Origin: Methanobacterium sp. UBA410
GTDB taxonomy: Archaea > Methanobacteriota > Methanobacteria > Methanobacteriales > Methanobacteriaceae
Assembly: GCA_002498385.1 (NCBI GenBank)
Contig: DAHH01000019.1
Coordinates: 1,772 to 65,771, forward strand
Direction of reading: 5' to 3'
DNA: 64,000 nt
Shown here: positions 12,814 to 59,379 of the stretch, one piece after another
How positions within the stretch are numbered: the stretch's first letter is position 1
Layout: each line of letters starts with the position of its first letter
Made by a program: the position numbers and the translations under genes
The notes under the pieces: model-generated
Told to the model about the DNA's origin: nothing
The model's input: the letters and a program-made list of their open reading frames with translations, nothing else
The model's database searches: none

Positions 12814-12883
12814 ATTTAGGTGAGTCATCTAAGGATGCATACACAAAGCTTGAGTTGAATAAGCAATTTAAGGGGTGAGTAAC

Positions 12884-13699: not shown

Positions 13700-13922
13700 T
13701 CTTCAACTTACACGTGCATTCAAACTTCAAATTAAATTATTTTACAGACTATTTTTTAGATAAATTATTAAAAAATTACATATATCCAAATTTACAAGAT
13801 TTCTCAGGTTTATTAGATAATTACTTGTATGATTTTTTATATTTATTGAATAAACTAGATCTCCTTGAGTTAAATGATGAACTCTTAGGCATTCAAGGTC
13901 ATCTTTCACAAGAGGTGTATTG

Positions 13923-14864: not shown

Positions 14865-14929
14865 TGGCCATTAATTTTTAAAAAAAGGTTTACTCAACGG
14901 TTTATTGAATCTGTAGGCGGAGGATATAC

Positions 14930-15769: not shown

Positions 15770-15848
15770 GTGCCTGAATTAATTTTTTTGTATCTTAAAA
15801 AAAATATAACTTAAAAAGGTCAGAAACAGGGTCTCAAGAGGGATAGAG

Positions 15849-30842: not shown

Positions 30843-30915
<73 letters not shown>

Positions 30916-30936
30916 ATATGAAAGTTAGCGTTTGAG

Positions 30937-31021
30937 TGCGGGGGCAGGGGTTCGAACCCTGGTAGACCTATGTCAACAGGTCCTAAGCCTGTCCCCTTTG
31001 ACCTGACTCGGGCACCCCCGC
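30937..31021 (-). tRNA. tRNA-Leu (UAG), long variable arm
   Basis: Acceptor GCGGGGG/CCCCCGC, anticodon arm ACAGG-CUUAGGA-CCUGU, 85 nt with an extra arm, T-loop GUUCGAACC. Confidence 0.85.
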
Positions 31022-31109
31022 AGTTAGATTTATTTAATGTCACTGTTTTTTTACGTATATTTCATATTCCTTTTTCATATTCCTTCACATGAAAAATGTA
31101 CATAAAAAC

Positions 31110-31188
<79 letters not shown>

Positions 31189-31236
31189 AATATGATCATG
31201 ATTGAACTGATTTTTTGAATAGTCTGTTGAATAGAG

Positions 31237-31310
<74 letters not shown>

Positions 31311-31312
31311 AA

Positions 31313-31389
<77 letters not shown>

Positions 31390-37299: not shown

Positions 37300-37497
37300 A
37301 GAAAATGAATTTTTCAACTTTAAAAGTTAATATGTTGCTGTCGGTATAAAAAATTGTTCCCTGATTGTGGTGAACCTGGATTTTTGGTGTATCACACATG
37401 GTTTACGCAGCAACTTGAAAAAGATTCATGCAGCATCTATAGAAAGATTTATATATGTTTGTACATACAATCTTCTTTGAGGATAGAGGTTCAAAAA

Positions 37498-38049
37498 ATG
37501 AAAGTACTGGGATTTGTTGGAAGCCCAAGGGAAGGCTCAAACACAGGAATAATGGTTGATGAAGTTTTAAAAGGAGCTTCTGATGAAGGAGCTGAAACAA
37601 AGGTCTTCAACCTCAACAAAATGAACATAAAACCATGCCAGGCATGCCAGCACTGTAAAGGCAATGCTGGTGAATGTGCCACAGACGATGACATGCAAGA
37701 TATTTACAAAGAGATAAAGGAAGCAGATGCTTTTGTACTCGGCGCACCTATCTACATGTGGCAGATGTCTGCCCAGGCAAAGCTGTTCATAGATAGGCTT
37801 TATGCGTTCTTCAAGACTGGATTTGAAGAAAAGTACGGTAAAAAAGATGTGGCACTGGTTTTCACACAGGGGAACCCTGAAGACATGTTTGCAGGATACA
37901 TAGACTCCACAAAAGACATGTTCAACTTCCTGGGTTACAACGTCAAGGGCGTGCTTTCTGCAAAAGGAAACCAGGCACCAGGAGACGTTAAAAATAAGGA
38001 AACTATTCTTAAAAAAGCAAGAGAGATAGGTAAAGACCTGGCCAACTAA
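37498..38049 (+). CDS. flavodoxin-fold NAD(P)H-dependent FMN reductase / iron-sulfur flavoprotein-like
   Basis: '[17 protein letters not shown]', 'CQACQHC', '[25 protein letters not shown]'. ATG at 37498 follows GAGGT; the track start at 37354 is not credible. Confidence 0.75.
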
Positions 38050-38144
38050 AAATTTTTATTTTTTAATTTTATTATTTTTGTTAATTGATGTAAATTTTTG
38101 TTAATTGATGTAAAAAGAGTCAACAAGGTTACGAGGTTTTTAAA

Positions 38145-38681
38145 GTGGAAAATGAAGCACTGGAAAATGAAGCATTGAAGGTTATAAAAAATCGTAAAAG
38201 TGTGAGAAATTATCTGGATAAACCTGTTGGTGAAAAAGACCTGGAAACTTTGATAAAATCAGGTATGGCTGCACCAAGTGCTGTTAATTTAAGACCATGG
38301 GATTTTTTAGCTGTTAAAAATGGATCCACACTCAAAGCTCTGGCAGATGTAATGCCCTTCGGTAAAATGCTCTCTGGTGCGGGTGCAGCATTGATAGTCT
38401 GTGGCACGCCTGAGAAATCCGTGCCGAATGCTCCTGAATTTTGGGTACAGGACTGTTCTGCTGCTTCAGAGAATATTCTTCTGGCTGCAGAATCCATGGG
38501 ACTTGGAGCTGTTTGGCTGGGTGTTTATCCAGTTAAAGAACGAATCCAAGGCGTTAGAAACATCCTTAACATCCCTGAAAACGTTGTTCCCCTGAACATC
38601 ATTTCAATAGGTTATCCTGCAGGTGCAGAAAAGCCCAAAAACAAGTTTGAGGTGGAAAAAATTCATAAAGAGAAATGGTGA
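38145..38681 (+). CDS. nitroreductase-family protein
   Basis: 'RKSVRNYLDKPV...MAAPSAVNLRPWDFL...LGAVWLG'. The N-terminus contains a 15-nt tandem duplication (ENEAL-ENEAL, 38148-38177). Confidence 0.8.
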   Translation: MENEALENEALKVIKNRKSVRNYLDKPVGEKDLETLIKSGMAAPSAVNLRPWDFLAVKNGSTLKALADVMPFGKMLSGAGAALIVCGTPEKSVPNAPEFWVQDCSAASENILLAAESMGLGAVWLGVYPVKERIQGVRNILNIPENVVPLNIISIGYPAGAEKPKNKFEVEKIHKEKW

Positions 38682-38825
38682 GAGCTTTTTTAGTTGTTTA
38701 ACTTAATTTTTTAGTTTAATCTTTTTTAGATATAAAATTTTAAATGTTTTTTTATTTTTAAAATTTAATTTTGTGTGATATGATAAGAAAATAATATGAT
38801 AAGAAAATATGGAAAGTGAGAGCAG

Positions 38826-39173
38826 ATGAAGGTCATGGCATTTAATGGAAGCTCAAGAAAGAGGGGAAACACTGCAGCCCTGCTTGAGAAAGCCCTTGAA
38901 GGGGCCAGACCAGAGGGAGCAGAAACAGAACTAATTCACATCTACGATCTGGATTATAAAGGATGTAAAAGTTGTTTTGTCTGCAAGCTGAAGGGAAGTA
39001 AAAGCTACGGAAGACGTGCTCAGCGGGACGCTTTGACACCCTTACTTGAAGAGGTTAAAAACTGTGATGCTCTTATATTGGGTTCAGAATTAAAGGCAAA
39101 AAGGCACAGGGAAGTTTTCCCTGAGGACTGTGAGAAGGCCTTCAAGATGGGTGCCAGGTTTGCAGGAAGATGA
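38826..39173 (+). pseudogene. internally deleted remnant of a flavodoxin-fold FMN reductase paralog
   Basis: Matches the 37498 gene through 'MKVMAFNGSSRKRGNT...CKSCFVC...CDALILGS', then jumps to a C-terminal tail. The FMN-binding core is missing. 115 aa against about 183. Confidence 0.5.
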
Positions 39174-39766: not shown

Positions 39767-40424
39767 ACACCTTTTATTTAAATTCTTACCTGGTTAAATT
39801 TAATCAACGCATTTAATTGAAAATTCCATTTAATTGAAAATCTTTTTCTCTGTTATAGAAGTATATCATCATGTAATTTAACTTTTTCAGGCAATGAACT
39901 GTGGGTTCGTAGTGTATCCACTTACAGTAATGGACTTTTAAAAACAATCTGAAAAACTAGAAATAAATTTTAATGGTTTAAGCTGATGTTTAGGTTAAGT
40001 CCTGAAGTTTGTTTATCTTTTTTTACAAAACAAATAGCGTAGGGATCCGCTATGTAAATTTAGCCTGTATGGATCCCCACATCTTGTATCGAAGGAAATG
40101 GCTGAATTAATAACATTCAATCAAATTCCATGATTTAGTAATAACAAACTCATTCTTCTTCCTATTGTAGATACCTTTCCCTTGATAATATTTAATAATT
40201 TCTATTTCTTCTGTATTATTACTTTCACCTTGAATCCATGGATTTTCGTAATAATCAGGATTAAGTTATTACTATTTGAGGTTATTTAAGTAAATAGTAA
40301 TAAAACTAACTTAAGTATTACTTTCGAGATGATTTTTCCTTTAAAAGTAATAATAATAATTGGATCGAAAGTATTATAAGTATATGACTCTAACCACAAA
40401 TTGTACTTACAATAAGAAAAGGAG

Positions 40425-45121: not shown

Positions 45122-48100
45122 GTGGAGGCACATAAATTGGCGAATAAAAAAGTCAAAATAAATATTTTCATGCTACTCTTCTTAACACTGTTTTCTTTAA
45201 CAATCTGTGGCACCGCCTCTGCAGACAGTAGTGTGGGAGGTCAGCCCGTTGTCACAGTTTTAAACGGCACTGTGAGCGGTGGTCTCTACAATGATTCTTA
45301 TTATGGTATCAATGGCTCAGAAGATCACCAGAACGTAACTTACAATTTCAAGGATCTTCCAAGTAACGCCCAGGTTCAAAATGCCACACTTTATGTAGCT
45401 GTTTACTCTGGAAACATGCAGAGTGATCATATAACCTGTGCAAACGTTACTTTCAATGGTAAACAGATTGACAGCCAGACTTTAGACACCCACTATAATT
45501 CTCCAAGTAGCGGTGGCAACGATAACACCGCTTACGGTGGAACAAGAAGGGATCCCTACCTTATAGTAAACAACCACACTGTAAGGGTTACCAGTGATTA
45601 CATCATGTGTTATGATGTCACAAGCCTCGTAAAACAAAAAAACATGGCTTACGTTGACACGGTCGGTTCCTACGATGGTGGAATAAAGCTCATAACTTTA
45701 ATTGTGGCTTACAATGATGGGGACTCGGATAAAATAGCCTACTGGGTAAACTTTGGCCAGGACGTTTGTGACTCTAATGACTCTGGAAATACAACGTTCG
45801 GTGGATTGCCTGTGGATGATACAGTAAACAGCGCAATTTTAAAGGTTATACACCTGGCAAGTGCTGATGGTATATATCACTTTAACAGTGCTCACGACAG
45901 TATGGACAACATCCTTTCCAACAGCAGTCCAGTTGGAAGTTACAGTGGATCAGATACATGGGATGTTACAAGCATGTACAAAAAGGGCACTGAAAACACC
46001 TTAATTTACCATAGAAGTCTCGCATATTACAAACTGGTACTGGCCCTTCTAACAGTAAACTACACAGAACCAGCGGTTAAATTACCAGATTTACAGGTTA
46101 GCAACATTATATGCAACCCAGATGCAATCAAACTTTCAGGTAACCTTTTTTCTGACAGTTCCAACACCATAAAAGCCACGGTTAAGAATTTAGGCAGTCT
46201 TGATGCAGGTCAGTTCAAAATGGTCCTTAAGGTTGGTAACTACATAGAAACAAAGGTGATAAAAGGCCTGGCATCCGGTGCAAGCACAATTGTTTCATTT
46301 ACAGGGTTTTTGCCCATCACAAATGGGCTTGTTACACTGGATGTAACTGCAGACAGTGATGGGCAGATTACAGAGGCCAATGAAACCAACAACATGGCTG
46401 CCAAATCTGTGAACGTTGTTACAAGCATTCTTCCTGATCTTGTACCTGTGAGTATCAGCGTTCCAAGTGACCTGAAAGTAGACACGGCCTATCCTGTTAC
46501 TGTTACAGTTGTAAATGAGGGTGTTAAATCTTCAGGTAAAACAAGAGTTATCCTATGGGCAACAAATATCAAAACTGGAGATAAGGTTGAAGTTGGAAGT
46601 ATGGATCTGGACTCTCTACCTGTTAATGGAACGAAGGTTTTAACGTTCAGCTGGACACCAAAGCTCTACACAACCTACAACCTGACTGCAGAAGTTGACC
46701 CCGATGGATCCATAGAAGAACTGGATGAAACAAACAACAAAAAAGTGGATGTAGAATACGTAAAAGAACCAGGTTCCACCATGATCTTCCTCACCAGTGA
46801 CAATAATGGAGTTAACATCCTGGACTCTGCAGCACGGGAGGTACTTAAACAGTATCCAAAAATTGATTTCAAGATAAGGACTGGAACAGAGATATCAAAC
46901 ATGGACACAAGTGAGTTAAGGACATACCTCTTAAATTGTGATATCTTTATAGGTACGTGGGTAACTACAGAAGCTTACGAAGCAATAAATGCAACTTTAA
47001 CGGCTTATCCAGATCTTATCAATGTAATTGCAGGTAAAAAAGTATTTTTGGTGCTGGAACCTCCAGCATCAACAGTTTCAAATGCAATAAACTTCATGAA
47101 CTACTCTGTTATTGATGGAGTTAAACTGCTTGGAAACTTCACATCTGATGATTTAACTGCTTACTACCAGAACACTGAGAGGGGTACTGATTACAATCAG
47201 GTTTTAAAGTACGTTGAATCTGGAACTCTTGCAACCCTCATCAAGAGTTATGAGGGAGCAAGCAGTGATGTTAAAACCAGCATAGTTTCCCAGGTAAAAT
47301 CCATTATAAACATCTTCAACATAGGTTCGAACATCCAGAACTTAACTGGAGATAATCTGATAAATGCAGTGAAAGCTTACCTATCACTGGTAACCTTAAC
47401 CACCAGTTATTCCAGTGCAGGTACAGATGAAAGAAACAAAATAGCTGCCAAGATCCAGGAACTCATAAAAAACTACAACTTCAACTCCTTCACTGATGAA
47501 ATGAATGCATGTGTTGCCCTTGAAACATTGGTGGACAACTATCAAAACGCATCAACGGACGAGGATAAAACCAAGATAGTTTCACGGCTTGAAAACATCA
47601 TTAAAGATATAACAGCTTACACAGCTGCAACCAGTGATTCTGATAGGGCAAACATTCTCCATGACTTTAAAAGTCTTATTGGCAGTACAGGAACAGATGC
47701 AGATGCAGTTACAATGATGGTTCAGGTGAGAAGCATCCTTGAAGACGTAACTGGCATGAAACTTGAGAACTTAACTGCTGATGAGAACCTAACAGGCAAC
47801 GTCACTGCAATCCTGAAGTACAGGGGAGTTTTCAATGACTACTTGATCGGCGCAGTCAGCAAATACACTGGAAGCACTGTTGTCACGGATTTAGACCTTC
47901 CAGACCTATTTGATAAGGCAGTGCTCTACAAAGATCTGAACGATGCTTCACGTGCAAAGGACATGATACTGTGGGCTTTAAGCCTTGATGGTTTTGTTAC
48001 AACCTACAACGAGCCGCCAAGTTTCTCAAGCACACCCTCCTATGGAATCTATAGAAATAAATGGTACTCTTACGTTGACAGTGACGGCGTGTGGCACACT

Positions 48101-51100
48101 GGACTTGAAGAATATGAAAAAGAATACTTCAAATCAGGACAGCCATGTGTGGGACTCCTTGAAAGTACAATGTACGTTACGGGTAATGGATTACAGCCTT
48201 ACTATGCCATAATAGCAGCTCTTGAAGCAAAAGGAATAAATGTAATACCCATTGTTGCATACGGTGGAACAGCTGCTCAACTTGAAGCAATGCTTGAAAT
48301 ATTCACCAACGCAACGAGTTATGATAAATTCATTCTTAACCCCTCGGCCTACAAAGTTAATCTAGATGCTGTTGTTGACATGGTTGCATATGGTCTTGGA
48401 GGAACTGATTTCTCCGAGATAATTCCATTCTTCAATGCTTTGAACGTGGAAGTTGTGGCTGCAGTTCATTCGGATTTCGAAACGAATGCTCAGTATGCAC
48501 TGGGCACCAGTGGATTAAATGCTTTAACAGGTGACAAGTGGTGGCACATTGCAATTTTGGAAGATCAGGGGATAGTGGATCCCATATTTGTTGGAGGTAA
48601 AGCAGAGACTGTAGACCCTCTTACAGGAACAACAATCAGTAGCTACGTTCCATATGAACAAAATATAGAACTTCTGGCAAATAAAATAAGTAGCTGGACA
48701 GCTCTAAAATACCTCTCAAATGCAGCAAAGAAGGTAGCCTTAATATACTACAACTACCCTCCAGGAAAACAGAACATTGCAGCAAGCTACCTGGATCCTG
48801 TGCAGAGCATATTGAACCTTTTAAATGTGCTGAAACAGAACGGGTACAATGTACAAAACATTCCGTCCAATGCGGCCCTTCTCCTGGATGAGATGATGGC
48901 GCAGGGAACCAACATAGCTTCCTGGGCACAGGGTCTTGTGGAAATCTTAGCCAACAACAACGGATCCCTCTTGGATGAATTAAAGGCCTACCAGGAGAAT
49001 GACACCTACAAGGTAGACCTGACCAAGCTGGATAAAACTGAACTGGAAAAACTCGCCAACACACCAGGAGTTATACTGTACTCTGCAGATGACTTCATGA
49101 AATGGTTCAACCAGCTCGACGACCTTGTGAAGCTGGATATTACAGAGGGACCCGTTGCCTACATAGGCGAACTCTGTAAAAGGGCAGTTGCACTGGGTTA
49201 TGTAGATAACATGGACAGCGTTATAGACAGCTGGTACTCCCAGATGGTCTCACTGCTTCCAGACAATCAAACAAACGTGGCATTACCAATATTGACAAAT
49301 TTAATCAGTGAACTCAAGGTTTACGTGGATTATAACAGTACAGCTGCATACAACAAATATTTGAACTACAAAAAAGAGTTTTTAGCCATTGAAATAAAGG
49401 GAATGTCTGGATGGGGAGATTTCCCCGGAAATGTAATGACAGTTGTGAAGAATGGAATCAAGTACTTTGTTTTACCAGGCATACAGTTTGGAAATGTGCT
49501 TATAGCGCCAGAACCGCAACGTGGATGGGAAGGAAATGCTGAACAACTTTACCACAACAGTGTTGTACCTCCAGATTACCAGTACCTTGCATTTTATGCT
49601 TACCTGCAGCAGCAGGGGTATAATGCAATGGTCTTCGTAGGAAGACACGCAACCCATGAGTGGCTACCAGGTAAGGAGGTGCTTGAAGATGCAGATGATT
49701 TCACATCCATAGTCACAGGAAACGTGCCACAGATATACTTCTACATAGTTGACGGTGTGGCAGAAGGAATAACAGCTAAAAGAAGGGGATCTGCAGTCAT
49801 AATAGATCATCTAACCCCACCAATGGGATTCACCAGCCTTTATGGAGGTATGTCAGATCTTGAAAGCCTGGTTGAGGATTATGATGGTGCAGATGATGCT
49901 GGAAAGGCTTCTATCATAATTAAAATCAAAGAGACAGTGAAAGACAACAACCTGGCGGCAGACATAGGCATCGACATAAATAACTTGAGCAGTGATAAAA
50001 TAATCAAGTTAATCAATGAGTACCTTGAAGCTGTGACAAACACGTTCTATCCATACGGTGTGGACGTTCTGGGCCAGAACTGGACGGATGATCAGATAGC
50101 TCTGCTTGTAACCTCCATGCTTTCTGTTCCATTCAATGTTGGCGGTGGAAACGAAACGAGTTTGCAGAATGAAATAGCCCTGTTAATGAGGGGAAAGACC
50201 TATGACTCGTTGAATGCTGCCGAACAGAATGCGGTGCAGGAGAAGTGTATTGAAGTTGTGAAGGAGCTCCTTCAAAGTGATGTTACAACAGTTGCAAATA
50301 AACTCACACCTAATCCCACGGAAAACCTGCAAACTGCCCTTAAAAAGGCTGTAACCTACTGCAATGAAATAAAGGAGAGCGTGAACAATGAGATAAACAG
50401 CTTCCTCAATGCGCTGAACGGGGGTTACATAACTCCAGGACCTGCAAACGATCCTATAAATAACCCTGAGGCCCTTCCTACTGGAAGAAATTTTTACCAG
50501 GATCAAGCAGCTGAGATACCCACTAAACAGGCTTACCAGAATGCAAAAGACCTTGTTCTCGCAACTTTGGAGGGTTCAGACCTTAAAGACACTGTGAAGA
50601 AGATCGTGGTTGGAATCTGGGATGTGGAAACAGCCAGGGACAATGGAGAACTCATCGCAATGATACTTTGCCTTCTTGGAATGGAGCCACAGTGGACAGA
50701 TTCACCAAGTGCAGGATCAGGCGGTGCAAAACTCAAAGAAATGCCCATCTATGATGAATTAAGCAGTCTGGTCAGGCCAGATGGTTGGGGGAAGAAAAGA
50801 ATAGATGTGGTGGTTGTAATCGACGGTAACTTCAGGGATCTTTACAGCAGACAGCTGGGACTACTGGATAAAGCGTTCAGAGTGGCTCTGGCAAGATCAT
50901 ACTACACCCTACTCAACAATGCAACCCTCCAATCCAAATATGGAGACAAGATGAAAACAGCTTTAGATGCTGTGCTTTTGGACATTGGATACTATGGTCT
51001 TGGCAGTGAGCCCCTTGACGATAATTACGTGGCATATGATTGGGTTGATGATTTCCAGTACTACATGGATGAGGGCATGAACTGCACAGAGGCAGGAGAA

Positions 51101-52306
51101 CTTGCAATATCCAGAATATTTGCCCCACCAGAAAATGATTACGGTGCACTCATCAGCCAGTCTGTGAAGCAGAGCTGGACCTGGAGCAATTCCGCAGAAC
51201 TTGCAGAGAACTACCTGAACAGAATGGGACACATTTACTCCTCTGAAAACTGGGGAACCTACAGTGCAAAAGCATTCAAAAGAGCCCTCACAGGAGTTTC
51301 TAAAGTTTTCACAAGCAGGGACACAAACTTATACGGTATACTTGACAACGATGACTTTTTCGATTACTGGGGGGGTCTTTCACTGGCAATAACTGCAGTG
51401 AACGGTCAGACACCTGACATGTATGTTTTAAAATATGGTAGTGGTACTAAACCAGGAGTTATGGGCATTGAACAGTTCCTTAACAGGGAATTGAACACCA
51501 GATACTACAACCCACAGTGGATCCGGGGAATGATGAGCAGTGGGTATGCCGGTGCAGGATACATGCAGAAATTCGTATCCAACCTCTGGGGATGGCAGGT
51601 TACAAGGTCAAGCGCGGTTCAGAACTGGATGTGGGACAACATAGTTGACACATACCTCAAAGATAAAAACAACCTTGGGGTTACACAGTTCCTTGAAAAC
51701 GGTAACAATGCCTATGCCATGATAAGTATGACGGGAACGCTTTTAACGGCTGCTTACAATGGTTACTGGAAGACGGATCAGGCAACCTTACAGATGGTTG
51801 CAAATGAATGGGCTCGCATGGTTATTGAACATGGTGTGGCCTGCTGTGACTGTAGCTGCGGTAACATTGCCATGATGAAGTGGGCTGTTCAGTACATCAA
51901 TGTGGACATGCTGGCGCAGTTTAAAAGTCAATTATATGCTGCAACTCAGAATTCTGCATTTGCTCCTTCATCGCAGCAGCAGACAAATCCCGGTGAAAGT
52001 CAATCTTCTCAAAGTCAGTCCGGTCAGTCTCAATCTGGCCAGTCCAGTGCTCAGGGTAGTTCTCAGGGACAATCCAGTGGTTCAAATCAGGGTCAAAGTC
52101 CGGCAGGTGTTGGGACTTCATCTGGACAGTCATCCTCTGAGTCGGGCCAAGGATCCTCTGGAGATCAGGGTAAAGCCAGTGAGGTAACTCCTGTAAGCCA
52201 AAGTTCCTCTTCACAGACAGGAATGCCAATAGCAGCCATATTTGGTATTATTGCAATTGTCTGCCTTGTTGGTGTGGGGTACTTTAGGGGCAAAGGTAAA
52301 TTCTAA
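45122..52306 (+). CDS. giant secreted, C-terminally anchored DUF3344-like / CARDB / CobN-type chelatase-domain fusion protein
   Basis: Signal peptide 'IFMLLFLTLFSLTICGTASADSS'. The N-domain is homologous to the N-terminus of the previous protein ('NGTVSGGLY', 'VYSGN', 'RVTSDYIMCYDVTSL', 'AYNDGDSDKIAYWVN'). CARDB 'LPDLQVSNI...', 'LPDLVPVSI...'. CobN signatures 'FVGRHATHEWLPGKE', 'AKRRGSAVIIDHLTPP', 'DYWGG'. Ser/Gln-rich linker, TM helix, and a 'RGKGKF' tail. The TTG at 45137, 8 nt after GGAGG, is an alternative start. Confidence 0.85.
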   Translation: MEAHKLANKKVKINIFMLLFLTLFSLTICGTASADSSVGGQPVVTVLNGTVSGGLYNDSYYGINGSEDHQNVTYNFKDLPSNAQVQNATLYVAVYSGNMQSDHITCANVTFNGKQIDSQTLDTHYNSPSSGGNDNTAYGGTRRDPYLIVNNHTVRVTSDYIMCYDVTSLVKQKNMAYVDTVGSYDGGIKLITLIVAYNDGDSDKIAYWVNFGQDVCDSNDSGNTTFGGLPVDDTVNSAILKVIHLASADGIYHFNSAHDSMDNILSNSSPVGSYSGSDTWDVTSMYKKGTENTLIYHRSLAYYKLVLALLTVNYTEPAVKLPDLQVSNIICNPDAIKLSGNLFSDSSNTIKATVKNLGSLDAGQFKMVLKVGNYIETKVIKGLASGASTIVSFTGFLPITNGLVTLDVTADSDGQITEANETNNMAAKSVNVVTSILPDLVPVSISVPSDLKVDTAYPVTVTVVNEGVKSSGKTRVILWATNIKTGDKVEVGSMDLDSLPVNGTKVLTFSWTPKLYTTYNLTAEVDPDGSIEELDETNNKKVDVEYVKEPGSTMIFLTSDNNGVNILDSAAREVLKQYPKIDFKIRTGTEISNMDTSELRTYLLNCDIFIGTWVTTEAYEAINATLTAYPDLINVIAGKKVFLVLEPPASTVSNAINFMNYSVIDGVKLLGNFTSDDLTAYYQNTERGTDYNQVLKYVESGTLATLIKSYEGASSDVKTSIVSQVKSIINIFNIGSNIQNLTGDNLINAVKAYLSLVTLTTSYSSAGTDERNKIAAKIQELIKNYNFNSFTDEMNACVALETLVDNYQNASTDEDKTKIVSRLENIIKDITAYTAATSDSDRANILHDFKSLIGSTGTDADAVTMMVQVRSILEDVTGMKLENLTADENLTGNVTAILKYRGVFNDYLIGAVSKYTGSTVVTDLDLPDLFDKAVLYKDLNDASRAKDMILWALSLDGFVTTYNEPPSFSSTPSYGIYRNKWYSYVDSDGVWHTGLEEYEKEYFKSGQPCVGLLESTMYVTGNGLQPYYAIIAALEAKGINVIPIVAYGGTAAQLEAMLEIFTNATSYDKFILNPSAYKVNLDAVVDMVAYGLGGTDFSEIIPFFNALNVEVVAAVHSDFETNAQYALGTSGLNALTGDKWWHIAILEDQGIVDPIFVGGKAETVDPLTGTTISSYVPYEQNIELLANKISSWTALKYLSNAAKKVALIYYNYPPGKQNIAASYLDPVQSILNLLNVLKQNGYNVQNIPSNAALLLDEMMAQGTNIASWAQGLVEILANNNGSLLDELKAYQENDTYKVDLTKLDKTELEKLANTPGVILYSADDFMKWFNQLDDLVKLDITEGPVAYIGELCKRAVALGYVDNMDSVIDSWYSQMVSLLPDNQTNVALPILTNLISELKVYVDYNSTAAYNKYLNYKKEFLAIEIKGMSGWGDFPGNVMTVVKNGIKYFVLPGIQFGNVLIAPEPQRGWEGNAEQLYHNSVVPPDYQYLAFYAYLQQQGYNAMVFVGRHATHEWLPGKEVLEDADDFTSIVTGNVPQIYFYIVDGVAEGITAKRRGSAVIIDHLTPPMGFTSLYGGMSDLESLVEDYDGADDAGKASIIIKIKETVKDNNLAADIGIDINNLSSDKIIKLINEYLEAVTNTFYPYGVDVLGQNWTDDQIALLVTSMLSVPFNVGGGNETSLQNEIALLMRGKTYDSLNAAEQNAVQEKCIEVVKELLQSDVTTVANKLTPNPTENLQTALKKAVTYCNEIKESVNNEINSFLNALNGGYITPGPANDPINNPEALPTGRNFYQDQAAEIPTKQAYQNAKDLVLATLEGSDLKDTVKKIVVGIWDVETARDNGELIAMILCLLGMEPQWTDSPSAGSGGAKLKEMPIYDELSSLVRPDGWGKKRIDVVVVIDGNFRDLYSRQLGLLDKAFRVALARSYYTLLNNATLQSKYGDKMKTALDAVLLDIGYYGLGSEPLDDNYVAYDWVDDFQYYMDEGMNCTEAGELAISRIFAPPENDYGALISQSVKQSWTWSNSAELAENYLNRMGHIYSSENWGTYSAKAFKRALTGVSKVFTSRDTNLYGILDNDDFFDYWGGLSLAITAVNGQTPDMYVLKYGSGTKPGVMGIEQFLNRELNTRYYNPQWIRGMMSSGYAGAGYMQKFVSNLWGWQVTRSSAVQNWMWDNIVDTYLKDKNNLGVTQFLENGNNAYAMISMTGTLLTAAYNGYWKTDQATLQMVANEWARMVIEHGVACCDCSCGNIAMMKWAVQYINVDMLAQFKSQLYAATQNSAFAPSSQQQTNPGESQSSQSQSGQSQSGQSSAQGSSQGQSSGSNQGQSPAGVGTSSGQSSSESGQGSSGDQGKASEVTPVSQSSSSQTGMPIAAIFGIIAIVCLVGVGYFRGKGKF

Positions 52307-52846
52307 AAATATTTTTCTTTTTTTCTTTTTTTAGATTAGTAAGATAATTTGTAATTAGTTTTAAAAATTAGTTTTTTGCAGATTCTGGATCAGCGCATGA
52401 TTATTTTAAAAATCCTGTAAAAAAAGTAGTTTCTGAAATGTTTAGAGTGTTTCAAACCCCTTGAAATTCAAGTTAATTCTATAAAAAGTTCTAAGAATAT
52501 GTTTTAGATCTCTATTTTGAATCCAAACTTCAAGGAGGAAATAGAGGATCTAAACTATTAAAACAAGAGTTAGATCCCGGTTACCCATTTTTTTCTATTT
52601 TGATGTTTTTTTTAGGAGGTTTAAAACTGTTCAGTGGTGGAATTAATTATTGGTCTCATCACCACACTTGCTTGTGCACCACAGTATATAAAGCTTTCTT
52701 TATTTTTTATCAAGTAACTGTGAAAAAAATAGTAAATTATATAAGTCATATTTACTTTACTTTTTTTCATGTACATTTGATTAATTTGGATTGATTGTTG
52801 AATGTACAATAAAAAATTTCTTATAAAAAGTGAAGGAGGTGAAAAT

Positions 52847-55800
52847 GTGAAAAAGCAAGTGTTATTACTATTTTTTGGTCTTATTATTGGAATTACAGTT
52901 TTTGGATCAGCGGTTTCAGCTGCCGACGTGAATTCTAATGTTAATGGCGCTCAAATTCAGATGGATAGTGATGTTTCAAACAGTACTGTAAATCCATCCG
53001 GTATTAATGCATCAACAGTAGTCGTGAATTCTCAAGGTTCAAACAACTGTGAGGATTCAGATTATAATGTTACAGCAGGTACTGATCCAGAAATTACCCT
53101 GAATGTTAATCTTGAACATCCAAAAGCACTTTCCAATAATTTACCAACAGTAACGGTAACAGATTCAGATGGTAAAACCATAGGTGATGTAACAGTAACA
53201 AAAACTGGAGACAAACAGTACAAAGTGAACTTCACAAGCGATAAAAAGAACTTCAACTTAACAGTTGGTGCAGGAGGACATGTACCTCAAACAGTGAACG
53301 TATCAGTCTCACAAAAAAACGCCAGCGATTCTACACGCTACGGTGAAGCAACAGTAAACCTGAGGGTTTACAATCTACTTATAATCAGTGGATCTCCAAA
53401 TTATGCCAAGAACTTCGTTGATTCGAATAGGGAATTAAGAGATAAAGGTTACTACTTTAATTTGAACTTTTTCACCACAACTGATGTAATATCCGGTGAT
53501 CCCAATGTGCAAAACAAGATAAAAAAAATGGCTTCAAGGGCAGACCTTATCATTCTTGAAATGATGAGTGAACAGGACACAGTTTCAATGGTAAGAAAAC
53601 TTATAAATGGCACAAATGCCAAGATAATGGCTTTAAGATGTGGTGTGACATTTTTAAATGACCCAATCATTGACTCAAACGACACTGAACTGACGGCTTA
53701 CTGGGATGGAACGGGTACAGAGAACATGGCAAGATTCCAGTTAAAAGCACTTCAAAAAGTGGGAATGAATGTTGACCCTTCCGAAGATCTGAGTGTTGTT
53801 AATTATCCAACTGAGTTCATTTACCATCCAGATTCTAACATATCAATGTTTTCAACGTGGGATGACTACCTGAAATGGTACATGCAGAGTGGTCATTACA
53901 AATCGGGAGCCCCATGGGTTGGAATAATGATGTATGGGTCAATGTTTTTCGGTGGAAACAGTGATATGGCTATGAGTATACTCAGAAGCCTTGAAGCAAA
54001 GGGTTTAAATGTGATTTTAGCTGTAACTACATCCACTGATAAAGCCAGAGTAAATGCAATCCTCAAATATTTCTTGGACGGTGATCTAAGTAGAATAAAT
54101 GCCCTTGTGGCCTGTGTGGGTTTCAACATCATTTACAATAACCCACAAAACAGTACAGATCTACTTAAAAAAATGGATATACCCATATTTGCACCGATAT
54201 ATGCTTCAGACCTTGAAGCATGGAAAAATAGTTCTGGTGGATTGTCTAGTGAGGTTTACTGGCAGGTTGCATGGCCAGAGATGGAAGGAAGGATAGAACC
54301 CATTATAATGGGTGGTGTAGAGTCTGGAGAAACAGATCCGTACACAAGCATCACAGTTAAAAACTATGAACCGATAGCAGATCGGATAGAAAGAATAGCA
54401 AACAGAGTACTGAACTGGGTAGAACTTCAAACTCTCCCCAACAGTGGGAAGAAAATAGCTTTGATCTATTACAACACTGCAGGGGGTAAAGATGGTGTTG
54501 GTGCTTCTTACCTCAACGTATCTGAAAGCATATCTGAAATTCTAAAAGCTCTCAAAGCAGCAGGTTACAATTTATCAGATGATTATTCAGTGGATTCCAT
54601 AATTAAGCTGCTTTTAACTGCGGGTAACAACGTTGGTTCCTGGGCTCCGGGAGAGCTTAAAAAGGTTGTGGATGCAGGTGCGATAACCATACCCGTTAAT
54701 GAATACATGCAGTGGTTTAATGCTTTACCTGAAGAACTTAGAAATGAAGTTATCGTTAAATGGGGTCCAGCTCCTGGTAATGTCATGGTTTATGAAGATA
54801 AAATCGTTTTACCTGGCATAATGTTGGGTAATATTTTTGTTGGAGCTCAACCAATGCGTGGATGGGGAGAAGATCCTGCGCAGATAGCTCACTCTCCAAC
54901 CTTACCACCAACTCACCAGTACATAGCCTTTTACATGTGGCTACAAAATGAAATGAAGGCCAATGCAGCCATACATCTGGGAACACACGGAACACTGGAA
55001 TGGTTGCCAGGAAAAAGTGTGGGATTAAGTGGTGATGACTGGCCGGATGTTCTAATGGGAAACATACCTGACATATATCCATATATTGTGGATAACCCTG
55101 GAGAAGGAACTCAGGCCAAAAGAAGGGGTTATGCAGTGATAATTGATCACATGACTGCTCCTGAAATAAGCTCAGGGCTCTATGGAGATCTTTCAGACCT
55201 GCAGACTCTGATAAACAGCTACGACAGTACCACCGATGAGGAACGTAAAAATGTTCTTGAAAAGCAGATCAGGGAACTTGTAACCAAACTGCATCTGGAC
55301 CAGGATCTGGGAATCAACATGGATACTGAAGCTTTCAACAACATTAAAAATGATGTTGAACACAAATTGCAGGATATTTCAACAACACTCATGCCTTACG
55401 GTCTTCATACCTTTGGAGTTACCCTAAATGGTACAATTCTGGATCAGATGATTGAATCCATAGTCAGCTTTGACCCAGCAACTAGGGACAACCAGGAATT
55501 CAGAGACAAATTAAGAGAGGAACTTTCTAAAAACTATGAAATAGAAGATTTATTGACAGTATTGAGTGGAAAATTTGTATCGCCTGCTTTGGGTGGTGAT
55601 CCAATTCGTAAACCTGATGTTTTGCCGACTGGTATGAACTTTTATTCATTTGATCCAAGATCAGCGCCAGATAAAACTGCCTGGGAAATTGGTAAGAATA
55701 TGGCCGATGACATGATTGCAGATTACTACCAGAAAAATGGTCACTACCCAGAATCAGTAGGAGTTGTTTTATGGTCAACTGAAACCATGCGTACCAACGG

Positions 55801-57283
55801 TCAAACTATAGCCATGATACTCAGGTACATGGGCTTAGAACCGGTCTGGGATTCCTCAGGAAGATTCAAAAGCTTTAAAGTAACACCATTGAGTGAGCTT
55901 CAGAGGCCTCGTTTGGACGTCATGGTAACCATAAGCGGTCTTTTCAGAGACACCTTCTCTTACACAATTGATGTTTTAGACCGGGCCTGTCGTGAAGTTG
56001 GAAGCCTACAGGAAAGTAACAGTGACAACTACGTTAAAAAACACTATCAAAATGACTACAATAAATATATACAGGAAGGAATGAGTTCTAAAGATGCAGC
56101 AAAATTTGCAGGAGCCCGTATATTCGGCCCTGCTGCTGAAGGTTATGGAACAGGAATTGCGGCACAGGTACCTTCAACTTCAGGATGGAAGGACCAATCA
56201 GATCTTGTGGATACTTACCTATCAAGAATGTCCTACATTTATGGCAGTGGAAACTACGGTGTTCAGGCAACTGAAACCTTTAAAGACCAGCTTAAAAATG
56301 TGCAGGCAACTGTACAGGTCAGAGACAATAATTATGGGCTTCTGGACAACGACGACGTGTACCAGTACCTCGGTGGTTTAACCATGGCTGCAAAAAGTCT
56401 TTCTGGCCAGGATGTAAATGTTTACATAGCAAACACCAGATCACAACCAAGAATAGAAACTTTGGGAAGCTTCCTGAGTAACGAACTTCGAACCAGACTC
56501 TACAATCCTAAATGGATTCAGGGAATGCTTAATGAAGGTTTTTCAGGGGCTCATGAGATAGATCAGGAACTAGGAAACTTTTTCGGCTGGAATGCTGTTA
56601 CTCCAGGTGCTATAAGTGATTGGATGTGGCAGGGTATGGCTCAAACTTATGCGTTTGATTCAAGTGTCCGAAGCCAGATGCTTCAGGCAAATCCTTATGC
56701 TTACACTTCGATGCTTGGGTGGATGCTTGAGGCAGGTAGAAGAGGCATGTGGAATGTTGATAAGACAACTCTAACGGAACTTGCCAATCAGTACGCTAGT
56801 TACACGAATCAGTACGGTGTTACATGTTGTCATCACACCTGTGCGAACATCATGTTCAACCAGTGGGTTGTTCAGGCTTCTTCCTTAAATAGCGGCCAAC
56901 TGCAGCAGTTTGCAAGTGTTGTGGCTGCTGCCACAGGTAAGAGCATAAGTGTTCCAAGTGGTTCAAGCAGTCAATCTGGTTCTCAGAGTTCCAGTGGGTC
57001 TCACTCTTCTTCGTCTGTGACTCCTGGTCTCAGTGCATCTGCAAGTAAAGTTCAGGGCAGTGCATCTGGTGCACAGTCAAGTTCTGCATCTCAGAGTGGT
57101 TCAGCTGGTTCTCAAAGTAGTTCTACCAGTGGATCCAGTAGTAAAAATGCGCATGAGATCTCTCCAGTGAGCTCTCAAAGTTCTTCAGCAGCATCTGGAG
57201 TTTCTTTTGCAGCCATAATTGGGGTAATATGCATTGTGTGTCTTGTTGCTGTGGGATACTTTAGAACTAGAAGAAATATTTAA
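52847..57283 (+). CDS. secreted, C-terminally anchored CobN-type chelatase-domain protein (paralog of the previous gene's C-terminal part)
   Basis: GTG start 5 nt after GGAGGTG. Signal peptide 'VLLLFFGLIIGITVFGSAVSAADV'. CobN signatures 'HLGTHGTLEWLPGKS', 'AKRRGYAVIIDHMTAP', 'LPTGMNFYSFDP', 'VYQYLGG'. Ser-rich linker, TM 'FAAIIGVICIVCLVAVGYF', and a 'RTRRNI' tail. Confidence 0.85.
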   Translation: MKKQVLLLFFGLIIGITVFGSAVSAADVNSNVNGAQIQMDSDVSNSTVNPSGINASTVVVNSQGSNNCEDSDYNVTAGTDPEITLNVNLEHPKALSNNLPTVTVTDSDGKTIGDVTVTKTGDKQYKVNFTSDKKNFNLTVGAGGHVPQTVNVSVSQKNASDSTRYGEATVNLRVYNLLIISGSPNYAKNFVDSNRELRDKGYYFNLNFFTTTDVISGDPNVQNKIKKMASRADLIILEMMSEQDTVSMVRKLINGTNAKIMALRCGVTFLNDPIIDSNDTELTAYWDGTGTENMARFQLKALQKVGMNVDPSEDLSVVNYPTEFIYHPDSNISMFSTWDDYLKWYMQSGHYKSGAPWVGIMMYGSMFFGGNSDMAMSILRSLEAKGLNVILAVTTSTDKARVNAILKYFLDGDLSRINALVACVGFNIIYNNPQNSTDLLKKMDIPIFAPIYASDLEAWKNSSGGLSSEVYWQVAWPEMEGRIEPIIMGGVESGETDPYTSITVKNYEPIADRIERIANRVLNWVELQTLPNSGKKIALIYYNTAGGKDGVGASYLNVSESISEILKALKAAGYNLSDDYSVDSIIKLLLTAGNNVGSWAPGELKKVVDAGAITIPVNEYMQWFNALPEELRNEVIVKWGPAPGNVMVYEDKIVLPGIMLGNIFVGAQPMRGWGEDPAQIAHSPTLPPTHQYIAFYMWLQNEMKANAAIHLGTHGTLEWLPGKSVGLSGDDWPDVLMGNIPDIYPYIVDNPGEGTQAKRRGYAVIIDHMTAPEISSGLYGDLSDLQTLINSYDSTTDEERKNVLEKQIRELVTKLHLDQDLGINMDTEAFNNIKNDVEHKLQDISTTLMPYGLHTFGVTLNGTILDQMIESIVSFDPATRDNQEFRDKLREELSKNYEIEDLLTVLSGKFVSPALGGDPIRKPDVLPTGMNFYSFDPRSAPDKTAWEIGKNMADDMIADYYQKNGHYPESVGVVLWSTETMRTNGQTIAMILRYMGLEPVWDSSGRFKSFKVTPLSELQRPRLDVMVTISGLFRDTFSYTIDVLDRACREVGSLQESNSDNYVKKHYQNDYNKYIQEGMSSKDAAKFAGARIFGPAAEGYGTGIAAQVPSTSGWKDQSDLVDTYLSRMSYIYGSGNYGVQATETFKDQLKNVQATVQVRDNNYGLLDNDDVYQYLGGLTMAAKSLSGQDVNVYIANTRSQPRIETLGSFLSNELRTRLYNPKWIQGMLNEGFSGAHEIDQELGNFFGWNAVTPGAISDWMWQGMAQTYAFDSSVRSQMLQANPYAYTSMLGWMLEAGRRGMWNVDKTTLTELANQYASYTNQYGVTCCHHTCANIMFNQWVVQASSLNSGQLQQFASVVAAATGKSISVPSGSSSQSGSQSSSGSHSSSSVTPGLSASASKVQGSASGAQSSSASQSGSAGSQSSSTSGSSSKNAHEISPVSSQSSSAASGVSFAAIIGVICIVCLVAVGYFRTRRNI

Positions 57284-57317: not shown

Positions 57318-57667
57318 AATCATTGGATCAAAGTTTTTAGGATTTTATTTTTGGTTTTAAGGTGATATTTTCTTGTTTTGCTCAGTTATTGATGTTTGTT
57401 GGTTTTAAGTTTCATAGGAAAATAGATTTTTCAGATGGTTTTTTTTGGACTGTTTTTAATCAAAAACTTTAAATATTCCATTTATCTTTAATTTTTATAA
57501 AGTATTCTTGATTAGGGGGAATGGCTAAACCAAAGAAGTTACAAAAAGGATTCGATCATATGCGAATAAGTTTTAAATAGATTAATGTATTACTTAAAGG
57601 CTTAAAAACAGCTTTAAAGTAATAATATTTATCAAATGAAAAGTATTATATGCTCAAAGAATAAATC

Positions 57668-58387
57668 ATGGAAATGATTAAAATGATTGAGTTACTATGG
57701 AAATTAGGAGTTCTATCAGCAGTTCTGGTTTTTGGAGTGAAGATTGGACTGGCAATGGGATTTGCAGGTTTGTCTAAAAAACTGGCAGCTTTGATCACCT
57801 TTGGATACGGTGGTGGGATACTTATCCTGTCAAAACTGGCTGAGGCTTATACAAGCGTTCTTTATAATGTTATCTATAACTACAGCAGTGTTGCTTTCAT
57901 GTTGATGGCGTTGATCATTTTTGTTGCAGGGTTCCACACCATTAAGGAGTGGAAGAAGAACAAGAAGAACCATGCAAAGGCCACATGTGCAGCCATGATA
58001 GCACCTTGCCCATGTTGTTTTGGGGCAGTTATAACTGCGATCATAATTGTATCACCAATAATTGGAGCTTCATCTTTCTTTGTTGGAAAGTACGCAGCAA
58101 TATTTTTGATGGTGTTCATAGGTGTTTTCTACCTGTTATCCGATGTGATCGTGAGGATCAGCAGGAAACCCTTCCCGGTTTTGCTGGGTAACTTCATGCT
58201 CTTTGTTGGATTGTACTTCCTCGCATCTGCCCTGATCATGCCAAACATCAGCTCGGTTTTAGCATCGCCCATGTCCAAAGTGGAAATTCCTTCAGTTGCA
58301 AACATGGTTTACGTGTTGATCGTGGTTGTAGCTTTGCTGGCATTGGGAATTTATAAAACAAGGAAAACCAGTTCTCTGATAAATTAA
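57668..58387 (+). CDS. polytopic membrane protein (DUF2162-like predicted transporter) with an intramembrane Cys cluster
   Basis: About 6-7 hydrophobic helices. 'TCAAMIAPCPCCFGAVITAIIIV' lies in a predicted TM segment. The family name is from memory. Confidence 0.7.
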   Translation: MEMIKMIELLWKLGVLSAVLVFGVKIGLAMGFAGLSKKLAALITFGYGGGILILSKLAEAYTSVLYNVIYNYSSVAFMLMALIIFVAGFHTIKEWKKNKKNHAKATCAAMIAPCPCCFGAVITAIIIVSPIIGASSFFVGKYAAIFLMVFIGVFYLLSDVIVRISRKPFPVLLGNFMLFVGLYFLASALIMPNISSVLASPMSKVEIPSVANMVYVLIVVVALLALGIYKTRKTSSLIN

Positions 58388-58403
58388 GGTGAGGGGTGAA
58401 TCA

Positions 58404-59078
58404 ATGGTATCAATTCCGGGCAGTGACTTGCTTAGTGGAGCTTTACACGTGGTTTCGCAGAGTCTTCTCATACCAGTAATGGTGACTCTGTTAATATTTC
58501 TAGTTTATGCAGTGATTGAGGTAGGAGGAATCCTATCTGAATATTCAAGTAGAATCAAGCTTGATGCAGCTCAAGTTGAGCTCATTGTAAAAGGCATCAC
58601 TGTTGCAACTACATCATCTGATATATGCAGGGTTGTAGAAAACACTGAACTTCCACGTGAACACAAAGACGTACTTATAAAAATTGCAAACAATATTGAA
58701 ATGGCTCCAAAGGCCAGGGAAACACTTGCAAGAAAATTAATTGAAGATGAAGAATTGAAGGCAGAAAAAAGAGTTGAAAAGACGGATATTATTGGTAAAG
58801 TTGGGCCTGCAATAGGTCTTATGGGTACGTTAATCCCACTGGGCCCAGGACTTTCAGCCATGGGTTCCGGAGATATAACCACGCTATCCAAACATTTGAT
58901 AATTGCGTTTGATGCTGCAGTTATTGGAATGGCCACAGCATCAATTGGATACACAATATCCAAGATCAGGAGGAGATGGTATGATGATCAGCTTTCAACT
59001 CTGGATGCACTTGCAGAATCAATACTGGAGGTTTTAGAAGATGTTAAGGCGGAGACGAAGACTGTCGTCTTCCAGTGA
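58404..59078 (+). CDS. MotA/TolQ/ExbB-family proton-channel protein
   Basis: Three-TM topology and the family core 'GPAIGLMGTLIPLGPGLSAMG...IIAFDAAVIGMATASIGYTISKIRRRWY'. ATG at 58404 follows GGTGAGGGGTGA, 17 nt after the DUF2162 stop. Confidence 0.8.
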   Translation: MVSIPGSDLLSGALHVVSQSLLIPVMVTLLIFLVYAVIEVGGILSEYSSRIKLDAAQVELIVKGITVATTSSDICRVVENTELPREHKDVLIKIANNIEMAPKARETLARKLIEDEELKAEKRVEKTDIIGKVGPAIGLMGTLIPLGPGLSAMGSGDITTLSKHLIIAFDAAVIGMATASIGYTISKIRRRWYDDQLSTLDALAESILEVLEDVKAETKTVVFQ

Positions 59079-59379
59079 AGATATAGACCCCATGGTTTAC
59101 GCCGTGAACATGGTGGACTGCATGCTTGTGCTTGCTGTGGGCTTTCTGATCTTCACTGTGATGTCCATGGGTTTGCAGAGTATTGTTTTCAGCGACGCAA
59201 CACCCCAGCAGAAACAGGAAATGATAAAAACAGTGGCACAAACAGTCCAGGTCCAGCAGGGACAGCAGCTAAATGAAACACCTCAAACATCATCTGGATC
59301 AGGCTCAGGATATGCAGAAATGGGAAAAGTCTACAAAGATCCCTCAACAGGCAAACTTATCATGGTGCAGGGTTCTTGA
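59041..59379 (+). CDS. ExbD/TolR-like single-TM protein (DUF2149-like), truncated exterior domain
   Basis: 'RRRRRLSSSSEDIDPMVYAVNMVDCMLVLAVGFLIFTV' parallels the E. coli ExbD N-terminus 'INVTPFIDVMLVLLIIFMV', including the TM Asp. Overlaps the ExbB-like gene by 38 nt. Confidence 0.65.
   Translation: MLRRRRRLSSSSEDIDPMVYAVNMVDCMLVLAVGFLIFTVMSMGLQSIVFSDATPQQKQEMIKTVAQTVQVQQGQQLNETPQTSSGSGSGYAEMGKVYKDPSTGKLIMVQGS

Follow-up and report, generated by a model that had tools for sequence, protein, structure and literature searches.

A 64-kb stretch of DNA from Methanobacterium sp. UBA410, referred to here as the window, encodes a 2394-amino-acid (aa) fusion protein in which DUF3344 and CARDB modules, as in methanogen wall proteins, precede a body related to the CobN and ChlH chelatases (Table 1). 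This protein is mis-annotated as a cobaltochelatase; it is an archaeal relative, fitted with wall modules, of the HmuS-type extracytoplasmic chelatase homologs. With moderate confidence, we propose that it is the substrate-handling extracytoplasmic part of an archaeal HmuS-like metal-acquisition system made up of CobN, DUF2162, an ExbB-like protein, and DUF2149. The metal of this system is most likely nickel/cobalt or iron, and the evidence does not decide which.

The Bacteroidota protein HmuS, homologous to CobN/ChlH, has a signal peptide and terminal transmembrane (TM) helices and is membrane bound, facing the periplasm; in vitro, a reductant alone, without ATP, suffices for it to turn heme into protoporphyrin IX and Fe2+ (PMC12583661, PMC13227078). 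These reports make outdated the premise of an earlier note on this DNA that CobN/ChlH proteins are soluble and cytoplasmic. In the hmu operon, HmuS is followed by the membrane protein HmuT, by HmuU of the MotA/TolQ/ExbB family, and by HmuV of family DUF2149 (PMC11681262, PMC10434189), the annotations of HmuU and HmuV referring to Porphyromonas gingivalis (PMC11681262). Many archaeal homologs, of unknown role, were mentioned by the authors of the HmuS work (PMC12583661). The fusion protein resembles HmuS (Bacteroides thetaiotaomicron PDB 9d26; P. gingivalis PG1553) in having a class I chelatase-family body that is predicted to lie outside the cytoplasm, a signal peptide or N-terminal TM helix together with a C-terminal TM helix, no AAA+ partner, and the essential His (His-538 in HmuS, H1509 in the fusion). 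The gene order is also alike, with genes for a membrane protein, a MotA/ExbB-family protein, and a DUF2149 protein following that of the chelatase homolog. The host differs, being an archaeon without an outer membrane, and neither the HmuY hemophore nor the TonB-dependent receptor HmuR was found in the window or in the archaeal loci. Further differences are the extra Cys cluster CCDCSC, the N-terminal DUF3344 and CARDB modules, and the long Ser/Gln linker of the fusion protein.

The fusion is a real and recurrent protein. About 25 protein clusters, defined at 90% identity, share DUF3344, CARDB, and CobN in proteins 1931-2862 aa long, and they include Methanothermobacter thermautotrophicus and a metagenome-assembled genome (MAG) labelled Methanomicrobiales. 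Twenty-three full-length relatives are collinear end to end with the fusion open reading frame (ORF) at 47-63% identity. That a wall-protein gene and a CobN gene were joined by an assembly chimera or a read-through artefact is an idea resting solely on the unusual length of the ORF, and we found no positive support for it. The same junction recurs in the roughly 25 independent clusters and in orthologs on complete chromosomes, the alignment stays collinear across it, and base composition shows no break near 46.7 kb. We regard a chimera as practically negligible and reject it, since the orthologs carry the same junction. The fusion is thus not unique, and databases already call its family cobaltochelatase CobN, the name borne by a near-identical 2397-aa protein in IMG. 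The earlier note had described one uninterrupted 2394-aa ORF and proposed looking for orthologous fusions, and both the ORF and the orthologs are there; its term "architecturally novel" was overstated, as the layout is shared by these clusters and almost all of the CobN paralogs retrieved from Methanobacteriales are likewise anchored. Still larger fusions of 2838, 2862, and 3964 aa exist (P0015, P0026, and L014 4129-16023), in which the CobN body is attached to a complete PKD/DUF11/DUF3344 wall protein.

The body belongs to the chelatase superfamily by a wide margin, with a match to PF02514 (CobN-Mg_chel) of 785 bits against a cut-off of 24.5 (E 1.5e-235). When the PDB was searched by sequence, the best solved-structure match was HmuS (5.6e-100), followed by ChlH (2e-89) and CobN (3e-84). 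For the pocket, the fusion ORF was aligned to the sequences of solved HmuS, ChlH, and CobN structures, and invariance was scored over the 23 aligned full-length relatives. H1509 falls at the position of HmuS His-538, whose replacement by Ala abolishes heme de-chelation (PMC12583661), while E1513 and E1548 fall at those of ChlH E625 and E660, the residues mutated in the ChlH E625K and E660D/W structures. All three are invariant, so that the pocket, which the earlier note had wished to see compared with solved structures, is retained at these positions. The surrounding loop is kept in a modified form, HxGxHGxLEWLPGK of CobN/ChlH appearing as xxGRHATHEWLPGK: the segment HFGTHGSLEF of both HmuS and ChlH, or H(M/L)GKHGNLEW of CobN, reads FVGRHATHEW in the fusion ORF, and the first His of the HFG(T/A)HG loop is F, Y, or H among the relatives. 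A second motif, LSLDHvyEFMGG in HmuS, DVSHYFD in ChlH, and LDSDDyyqFEGG in CobN, is LDNDDFFDYWGG in the fusion ORF, with an LDNDD element that is invariant in the relatives. Here D2078 stands at the place of HmuS His-1209 and the ChlH His, a position at which CobN also has Asp (LDSDD), and D2081 stands at HmuS Glu-1212. That the residue is a CobN-like Asp where HmuS and ChlH have His speaks against labelling the protein plainly as a heme de-chelatase. The head and neck of HmuS, where its heme ligands Met-79 and His-254 lie, do not align by sequence with the fusion ORF.

Near the end of the body is a Cys cluster that is nearly invariant in the family; one lineage (shown for P0019) has GDHHTHDH instead, and the 1493-aa paralog family has CCHHTC. 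Because the site changes sequence and stays ligand-rich, it suggests metal binding. By BLASTP, the body is 49-61% identical across genera, against 30-50% for the N-terminal modules. Invariant motifs, the Cys cluster, and the strong conservation of the body together make it unlikely that the body is a degenerate scaffold. These observations bear on the possibility that the protein is a wall or adhesin protein whose CobN body is enzymatically dead and merely a structural or spacer module. Such a role would fit the N-terminal DUF3344 and CARDB modules common to giant wall proteins, a density of glycosylation sequons like that of a wall protein, and scores far under the cut-offs of all NCBIfam CobN/BchH equivalog models. 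However, the body is the best-conserved part of the protein, its active-site motifs and Cys cluster are invariant or nearly so, and many family members without adhesin-type modules keep the DUF2162, ExbB-like, and DUF2149 genes (the trio), and so we consider a purely structural role quite unlikely. As the catalytic residues are conserved, catalysis by the body, for example de-chelation, appears at least as likely as passive binding. The earlier note had favored an ATP-independent role in binding or capture over chelation; ATP independence is sensible, with no ChlI/ChlD in the window, and the preference for binding is undecided.

The predicted topology places the protein outside the cell membrane. 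Its N-terminus has a Lys-rich n-region, a hydrophobic core of 16-18 residues, and the c-region CGTASA|D, orthologs are alike, and a search of this N-terminus for a twin-arginine motif found none. Among 73 complete homologous ORFs from species-representative genomes, the N-terminus is hydrophobic in 68 and the C-terminus in 70, and of the CobN paralogs retrieved from Methanobacteriales nearly all combine a signal peptide with a C-terminal anchor. We strongly infer an extracytoplasmic, type-I membrane protein with its whole mass outside the cytoplasmic membrane. The signal peptide, Ser/Gln linker, TM helix, and basic tail noted earlier are all present as sequence features, and the extracytoplasmic location proposed with them is supported as a predicted topology. 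The arrangement would differ from a CobN domain mounted on a wall-spanning stalk, as the earlier note had pictured it: the tether is not an N-terminal stalk but the C-terminal linker, which would put the CobN body next to the membrane and the DUF3344 and CARDB modules in a distal position. N-glycosylation sequons number 39 per 1000 aa in the DUF3344 domain and 39 in the upstream wall protein, ~20 in the head plus insertion, and 7 in the CobN body, with 0-10 in 19 further ORFs of the window. A C-terminal pattern of YE[VI], a Ser-rich stretch, G.P..A..G....L.G.GY[FY], and a basic tail (52150-52303; P0075-P0129) recurs in every CobN subfamily retrieved. This pattern seems too conserved for a plain anchor and may act as a signal for sorting or as a site of contact with the ExbB-like and DUF2149 proteins; the NCBIfam models of C-terminal sorting signals did not match the CobN anchor.

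Signal peptide, surface-type domains, and C-terminal anchor count against the role implied by the database name, that of a classical cytoplasmic cobaltochelatase CobN that serves cobalamin synthesis with an AAA+ motor. The fusion protein does share the PF02514 superfamily and the same neck and body domains with CobN (PDB 7c6o, 9uk9) and ChlH/BchH (PDB 4zhj), keeps the equivalents of ChlH E625 and E660, and has the CobN-type LDxDD motif; the name and the strong PF02514 match speak for that role. Those enzymes, however, are soluble, cytoplasmic proteins of ~1100-1400 aa that use AAA+ CobST or ChlID and ATP, whereas the fusion protein, at 2394 aa, is predicted to be exported and anchored, and no ChlI/ChlD-type AAA+ gene or CobS/CobT gene was found in the 64-kb window. 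The NCBIfam equivalog cut-offs are missed, with 729 versus 1619 bits for NF004645 and 459 versus 822 bits for TIGR02257, and Methanothermobacter makes its corrinoids by the anaerobic route with CbiX as cobalt chelatase (PMC3087415). A classical CobN function is, in our judgment, very improbable.

Evidence for the HmuS-like system comes also from the gene neighborhood. Downstream of the fusion gene in the window come a second CobN paralog and then the trio. One genome per species was scanned, giving 80 loci of this CobN subfamily in Methanobrevibacter, Methanosphaera, Methanobacterium, Methanothermobacter, and a few bacteria (Actinomycetota MAGs, Ammonifex). Where at least 2.5 kb of downstream sequence was available (68 loci), DUF2162 lies within 1.5 kb of the CobN stop and is followed by the ExbB-like gene and DUF2149 in 52. 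A second CobN stands between CobN and the trio in three loci, as in the window. The trio lies upstream of CobN in Ammonifex and in three Methanosphaera loci, ending just before the CobN gene in the latter. Three bacterial loci from Actinomycetota MAGs and Ammonifex (L071, L083, and L084) contain the same CobN subfamily at 37-40% identity; two of them (L071 and L084) also have DUF2162, the ExbB-like gene, and DUF2149, and the module is therefore not confined to archaea.

DUF3344 is in the same reading frame as CobN in only 10 of the 73 complete ORFs; the Methanobrevibacter versions, ~1650-1790 aa long, consist of signal peptide, CobN, and anchor. In other genomes, CobN nevertheless has a DUF3344 wall gene as a conserved neighbor, and 42 of 58 unfused CobN loci have a separate DUF3344 gene in their flank, in most cases immediately behind DUF2149. 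The fusion thus serves as a "Rosetta stone" that links surface CobN functionally to DUF3344 wall proteins.

Within the trio, DUF2162 is a predicted membrane transporter in which the PCPCC motif is intramembrane and invariant in the family alignment. This motif is reminiscent of the CPC metal sites in the membrane part of P1B-type ATPases and suggests, by analogy, a pathway for thiophilic metal ions. The ExbB-like protein belongs to the Pfam family reported for HmuU and matches solved MotA and the TolQ and PomA models weakly. The DUF2149 protein has one TM helix, like ExbD, and matched neither solved structures nor NCBIfam models; TonB was not found. An alternative to metal release is a receptor for tetrapyrrole capture or salvage, the CobN body binding a corrinoid, heme, or other metalloporphyrinoid and passing it intact to DUF2162, energized by the ExbB-like/DUF2149 pair, with the metal staying in place. 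The conserved cavity residues would suit ligand binding as well as catalysis, and HmuS of P. gingivalis has also been proposed as a heme chaperone to HmuTUV (PMC13227078). CobN-like BtuS proteins of Methanosarcina barkeri, whose abundance shifts with iron and sulfur source, have been discussed as metalloporphyrin-salvage proteins (PMC10846266). Yet DUF2162, which is small (~235 aa) and has PCPCC, resembles a route for ions more than a pore for tetrapyrroles, and the neighboring and co-regulated genes are those of the ion importers CbiM and FeoB. In addition, the His and Glu that are catalytic in HmuS/ChlH are invariant in the fusion family, and an Rfam scan of the window found no riboswitch, cobalamin riboswitches included. 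We therefore find salvage of the intact tetrapyrrole unlikely.

A possible basis for coordinated expression is a palindrome that occurs in the window with 6 strand-matches against 0.01 expected from shuffles. Its three tandem copies lie 73-172 bp upstream of the wall-protein gene, and a fourth lies 44 bp upstream of DUF2162. Across the fetched loci, it is found 15-280 bp upstream of CobN genes of both subfamilies, of DUF3344 wall-protein genes, and of DUF2162 operons, with a spread over Methanobacterium, Methanobrevibacter, and Methanosphaera; one locus, L005, has it at 6384, 9853, and 21301. In L086 alone it stands upstream of a CbiM gene (25500). We consider it a candidate operator of a regulon. 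The TTAC/GTAA core is that of published NikR operators, which have a spacing of N13/14 (PMC545781); with its N24/25 spacing, the palindrome is not claimed as a NikR site. Scans of the Methanothermobacter promoters of CobN1 and of the fusion ortholog found single half-sites only. No DNA-binding protein stood out among the ORFs divergent from palindrome sites, which encode coiled-coil proteins, GNAT, FMN reductase, an MFS fragment, and an FmdE-domain protein. Scans for sigma-70 promoters and intrinsic terminators gave counts not above shuffled controls and, relying on a bacterial consensus, are uninformative for an archaeon.

Hints as to the metal come from neighbors and from related proteins. 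In L005, CbiM-PDGLE-CbiQ follows the trio, and in Methanothermobacter sp. EMTCatA1 (L003 8001-14273) the closest relative of the second CobN of the window is directly followed by feoA-feoB. The latter arrangement echoes the HmuS-to-FeoB iron route in Bacteroides. CobN1 of Methanothermobacter marburgensis (MTBMA_c06860) rises ~300-fold and reaches a high level only under nickel limitation (PMC12350162). It, too, is a CobN homolog of Methanobacteriales, and its ortholog by synteny (P0127) combines a signal peptide and a low-complexity linker with the C-terminal anchor pattern seen in the fusion protein; it differs in belonging to a divergent subfamily of ~1310 aa that lacks the LDNDD and Cys-cluster regions, DUF3344/CARDB, and an adjoining DUF2162 trio. 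Genes of the FMN-reductase and nitroreductase families are located immediately upstream of the cluster (window 37354-39173), and an FMN reductase lies beside a palindrome in L008 (9034-9627). These neighbors may be relevant, as HmuS needs a reductant, or may be coincidental.

In the fusion gene, a GGAGG at 45124-45128 lies 8 nt before an in-frame TTG at 45137, which suggests this later start, five codons inside the listed ORF, as the likely true one. The DUF3344 domain scores 172.8 bits against a gathering score of 27.2. AlphaFold models it with a pLDDT (predicted local distance difference test) of 90 and a pTM (predicted template modelling score) of 0.91, and the Foldseek matches of this model to PNGase F, double jelly-roll capsid proteins, and the SID1 ectodomain are weak (TM-score <=0.30), such that no function follows from them. 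The best CARDB stretch (PF07705, aa 322-427) has an E value of 2.6e-33 and 114.7 bits against a gathering score of 22.7, and the region matches the PDB sequences 2l0d, a "cell surface protein," and 2kl6. By BLASTP, the first ~530 aa are 30% identical to the N-terminus of the upstream wall protein (E 5e-37). Both the DUF3344-like plus CARDB composition and the homology to the wall protein had been read from the sequence in the earlier note, and the Pfam scan and BLASTP confirm them. The cell-surface or adhesin-like DUF3344/PKD/CARDB proteins of methanogens are homologous to these 530 aa and differ in having no enzyme-like body.

The CobN part had been placed from about nt 46770 onward; the body is intact, but sequence hidden Markov models (HMMs) see CobN homology only from aa ~934, and what precedes it is assigned from models. 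AlphaFold, run on an alignment of 23 sequences, gives for aa ~553-670 a four-stranded parallel alpha/beta domain with pLDDT >90, in agreement with what has been published on the chelatase head domain. Foldseek matched the modelled fragment aa 545-1180 to 11 structures at E<=1e-3, all of them ChlH, CobN, or HmuS, with low TM-scores, and from the model and these matches aa ~553-670 would be the chelatase "head." Between head and neck lies an insertion of ~225 aa (aa ~700-925), missing by BLASTP in all five orthologs compared and modelled by AlphaFold as all-helical, in the form of helical hairpins. Its sequence reads as ~4-5 copies of a ~35-aa motif, L..L...Y..A.[ST]D..K..I...I..I, and since this motif resembles the canonical helical element at aa ~1577-1610, the insertion appears to have arisen by duplication of that element. 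The second CobN paralog shares 29% identity with the fusion and has a canonical loop, HLGTHGTLEW, as well as the motifs LDNDDVYQYLGG and CCHHTC; its translation probably begins at GTG 52847, which closely follows GGAGGTGA, in agreement with the N-termini of its homologs.

Elsewhere in the window are five consecutive genes for CBS-domain proteins (12256-16670) and, on the minus strand, five tRNA genes (His, Leu, Glu, Met, and Asn; 30843-31388). A 163-aa ORF at 29126-29620 (-) has weak CARDB and TRAP-beta-like matches and may encode a small surface protein.

Table 1. Coordinates, in window positions, of the fusion ORF, its parts, and the surrounding genes and sites
Feature	Position	Strand	Basis or content
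Whole fusion ORF	45122..52306	+	2394 codons, no internal stop
Signal peptide, aa 1-34	45122..45223	+	n-region KLANKKVK, hydrophobic core INIFMLLFLTLFSLTI, c-region CGTASA|D
DUF3344 domain, aa 38-312	45233..46057	+	Pfam PF11824, E 1.5e-50; all-beta
Two CARDB modules, aa ~322-427 and ~438-548	46085..46765	+	Pfam CARDB, two stretches
Chelatase head-like alpha/beta domain, aa ~553-670	46778..47131	+	AlphaFold model; missed by sequence HMMs
Lineage-specific helical insertion, aa ~700-925	47219..47896	+	BLASTP versus orthologs; model
CobN/ChlH/HmuS-type neck and body, aa ~934-2276	47921..51949	+	Pfam PF02514, NCBIfam CobN/BchH models, PDB matches
Active-site loop FVGRHATHEWLPGK, aa 1505-1518	49634..49675	+	Alignment to HmuS/ChlH
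Second motif LDNDDFFDYWGG, aa 2074-2085	51341..51376	+	Alignment to HmuS, ChlH, CobN
Cys cluster CCDCSCGN, aa 2241-2248	51842..51865	+	Sole Cys/His-rich patch in the fusion protein
Ser/Gln/Gly-rich linker, aa 2277-2365	51950..52216	+	89 aa: S 32, Q 19, G 14
C-terminal TM helix (aa ~2368-2388) and basic tail RGKGKF	52223..52303	+	Sequence, orthologs
Upstream wall protein, 1532 aa	40425..45023	+	DUF3344 x3, PKD, CARDB, CHB_HEX_C, DUF11
Second CobN paralog, 1493 aa as listed	52802..57283	+	Signal peptide, Ser-rich linker, C-terminal TM helix
DUF2162 predicted membrane transporter	57668..58387	+	~235 aa, invariant PCPCC
MotA/TolQ/ExbB-family protein	58389..59078	+	PF01618, 34.9 bits versus 22.9; HmuU's reported Pfam family
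DUF2149 protein	59041..59379	+	Family annotation as HmuV
Palindrome [T/G]TATTAC-N24/25-GTAATAA, three tandem copies	40216..40353	.	73-172 bp upstream of wall-protein gene
Fourth palindrome copy	57587..57625	.	44 bp upstream of DUF2162 gene

Taken as part of an HmuS-like system, the fusion protein would work as follows. The CobN body would bind a metal-tetrapyrrole or another metal chelate between the membrane and the pseudomurein and, by analogy with HmuS, would free the metal ion without ATP or hand the metal over. The ion could then be imported via DUF2162 or via a divalent-metal importer such as CbiMNQ or FeoB, with the ExbB-like/DUF2149 pair supplying proton-motive energy. The distal DUF3344 and CARDB modules may position the enzyme at the wall or display it there, in concert with the co-regulated DUF3344 wall proteins.

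Several points weigh against this proposal. In the fusion protein, HmuS His-1209 and Glu-1212 (LSLDHxxEFMGG) give way to LDNDDFFDYWGG, with its CobN-like LDNDD...D, and the Met-rich insertion of HmuS is missing, and so heme de-chelation as such is not implied. Removal of nickel or cobalt from corrinoid- or F430-type macrocycles is chemically demanding. Searches gave no link between HmuT and DUF2162, HmuT of P. gingivalis being just a "hypothetical protein" in published gene tables: a profile search with the DUF2162 alignment returned only archaeal and actinobacterial proteins among the 120 matches listed, tblastn of plasmids found nothing, and no paper that links the two was found in the literature searched. 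The M. thermautotrophicus ortholog and a few others are without an adjacent DUF2162 trio, the fusion gene has no palindrome in its own 99-bp upstream spacer, and the nickel-limitation result comes from another CobN subfamily, one in which the C-terminal motifs are absent. The signal peptide was called from sequence features and not by a trained predictor, and the location and biochemistry of the archaeal members are themselves sequence predictions.

A wider and more tentative view, which we think rather unlikely to hold in full, is that Methanobacteriales and a few bacteria share a hitherto unrecognised trace-metal pathway built on extracellular class I chelatase homologs. In such a pathway, an AAA+ ATPase would be replaced as the power source by the ExbB-like/DUF2149 pair, a proton-driven stator acting through the conserved C-terminal TM helix of CobN in a TonB-like manner. 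Nickel/cobalt or iron would be stripped from environmental chelates and enter via DUF2162 or CbiMNQ/FeoB, with DUF3344 proteins as capture accessories and the whole set under the palindrome as a regulon. We found no paper on a surface-anchored archaeal CobN, on a DUF3344 fusion, or on DUF2162.

Methanogens hold several "CobN" genes of unclear purpose; their cobalamin route is anaerobic, and CfbA has been identified as the nickel chelatase of F430 (PMC7689651). The locus described here recasts the cobaltochelatase label as a testable hypothesis on how methanogens are supplied with nickel, cobalt, or iron, and it offers a first functional handle on DUF3344, DUF2162, and DUF2149. These three metals are limiting for methane formation in natural environments, in the rumen and gut, and in digesters.

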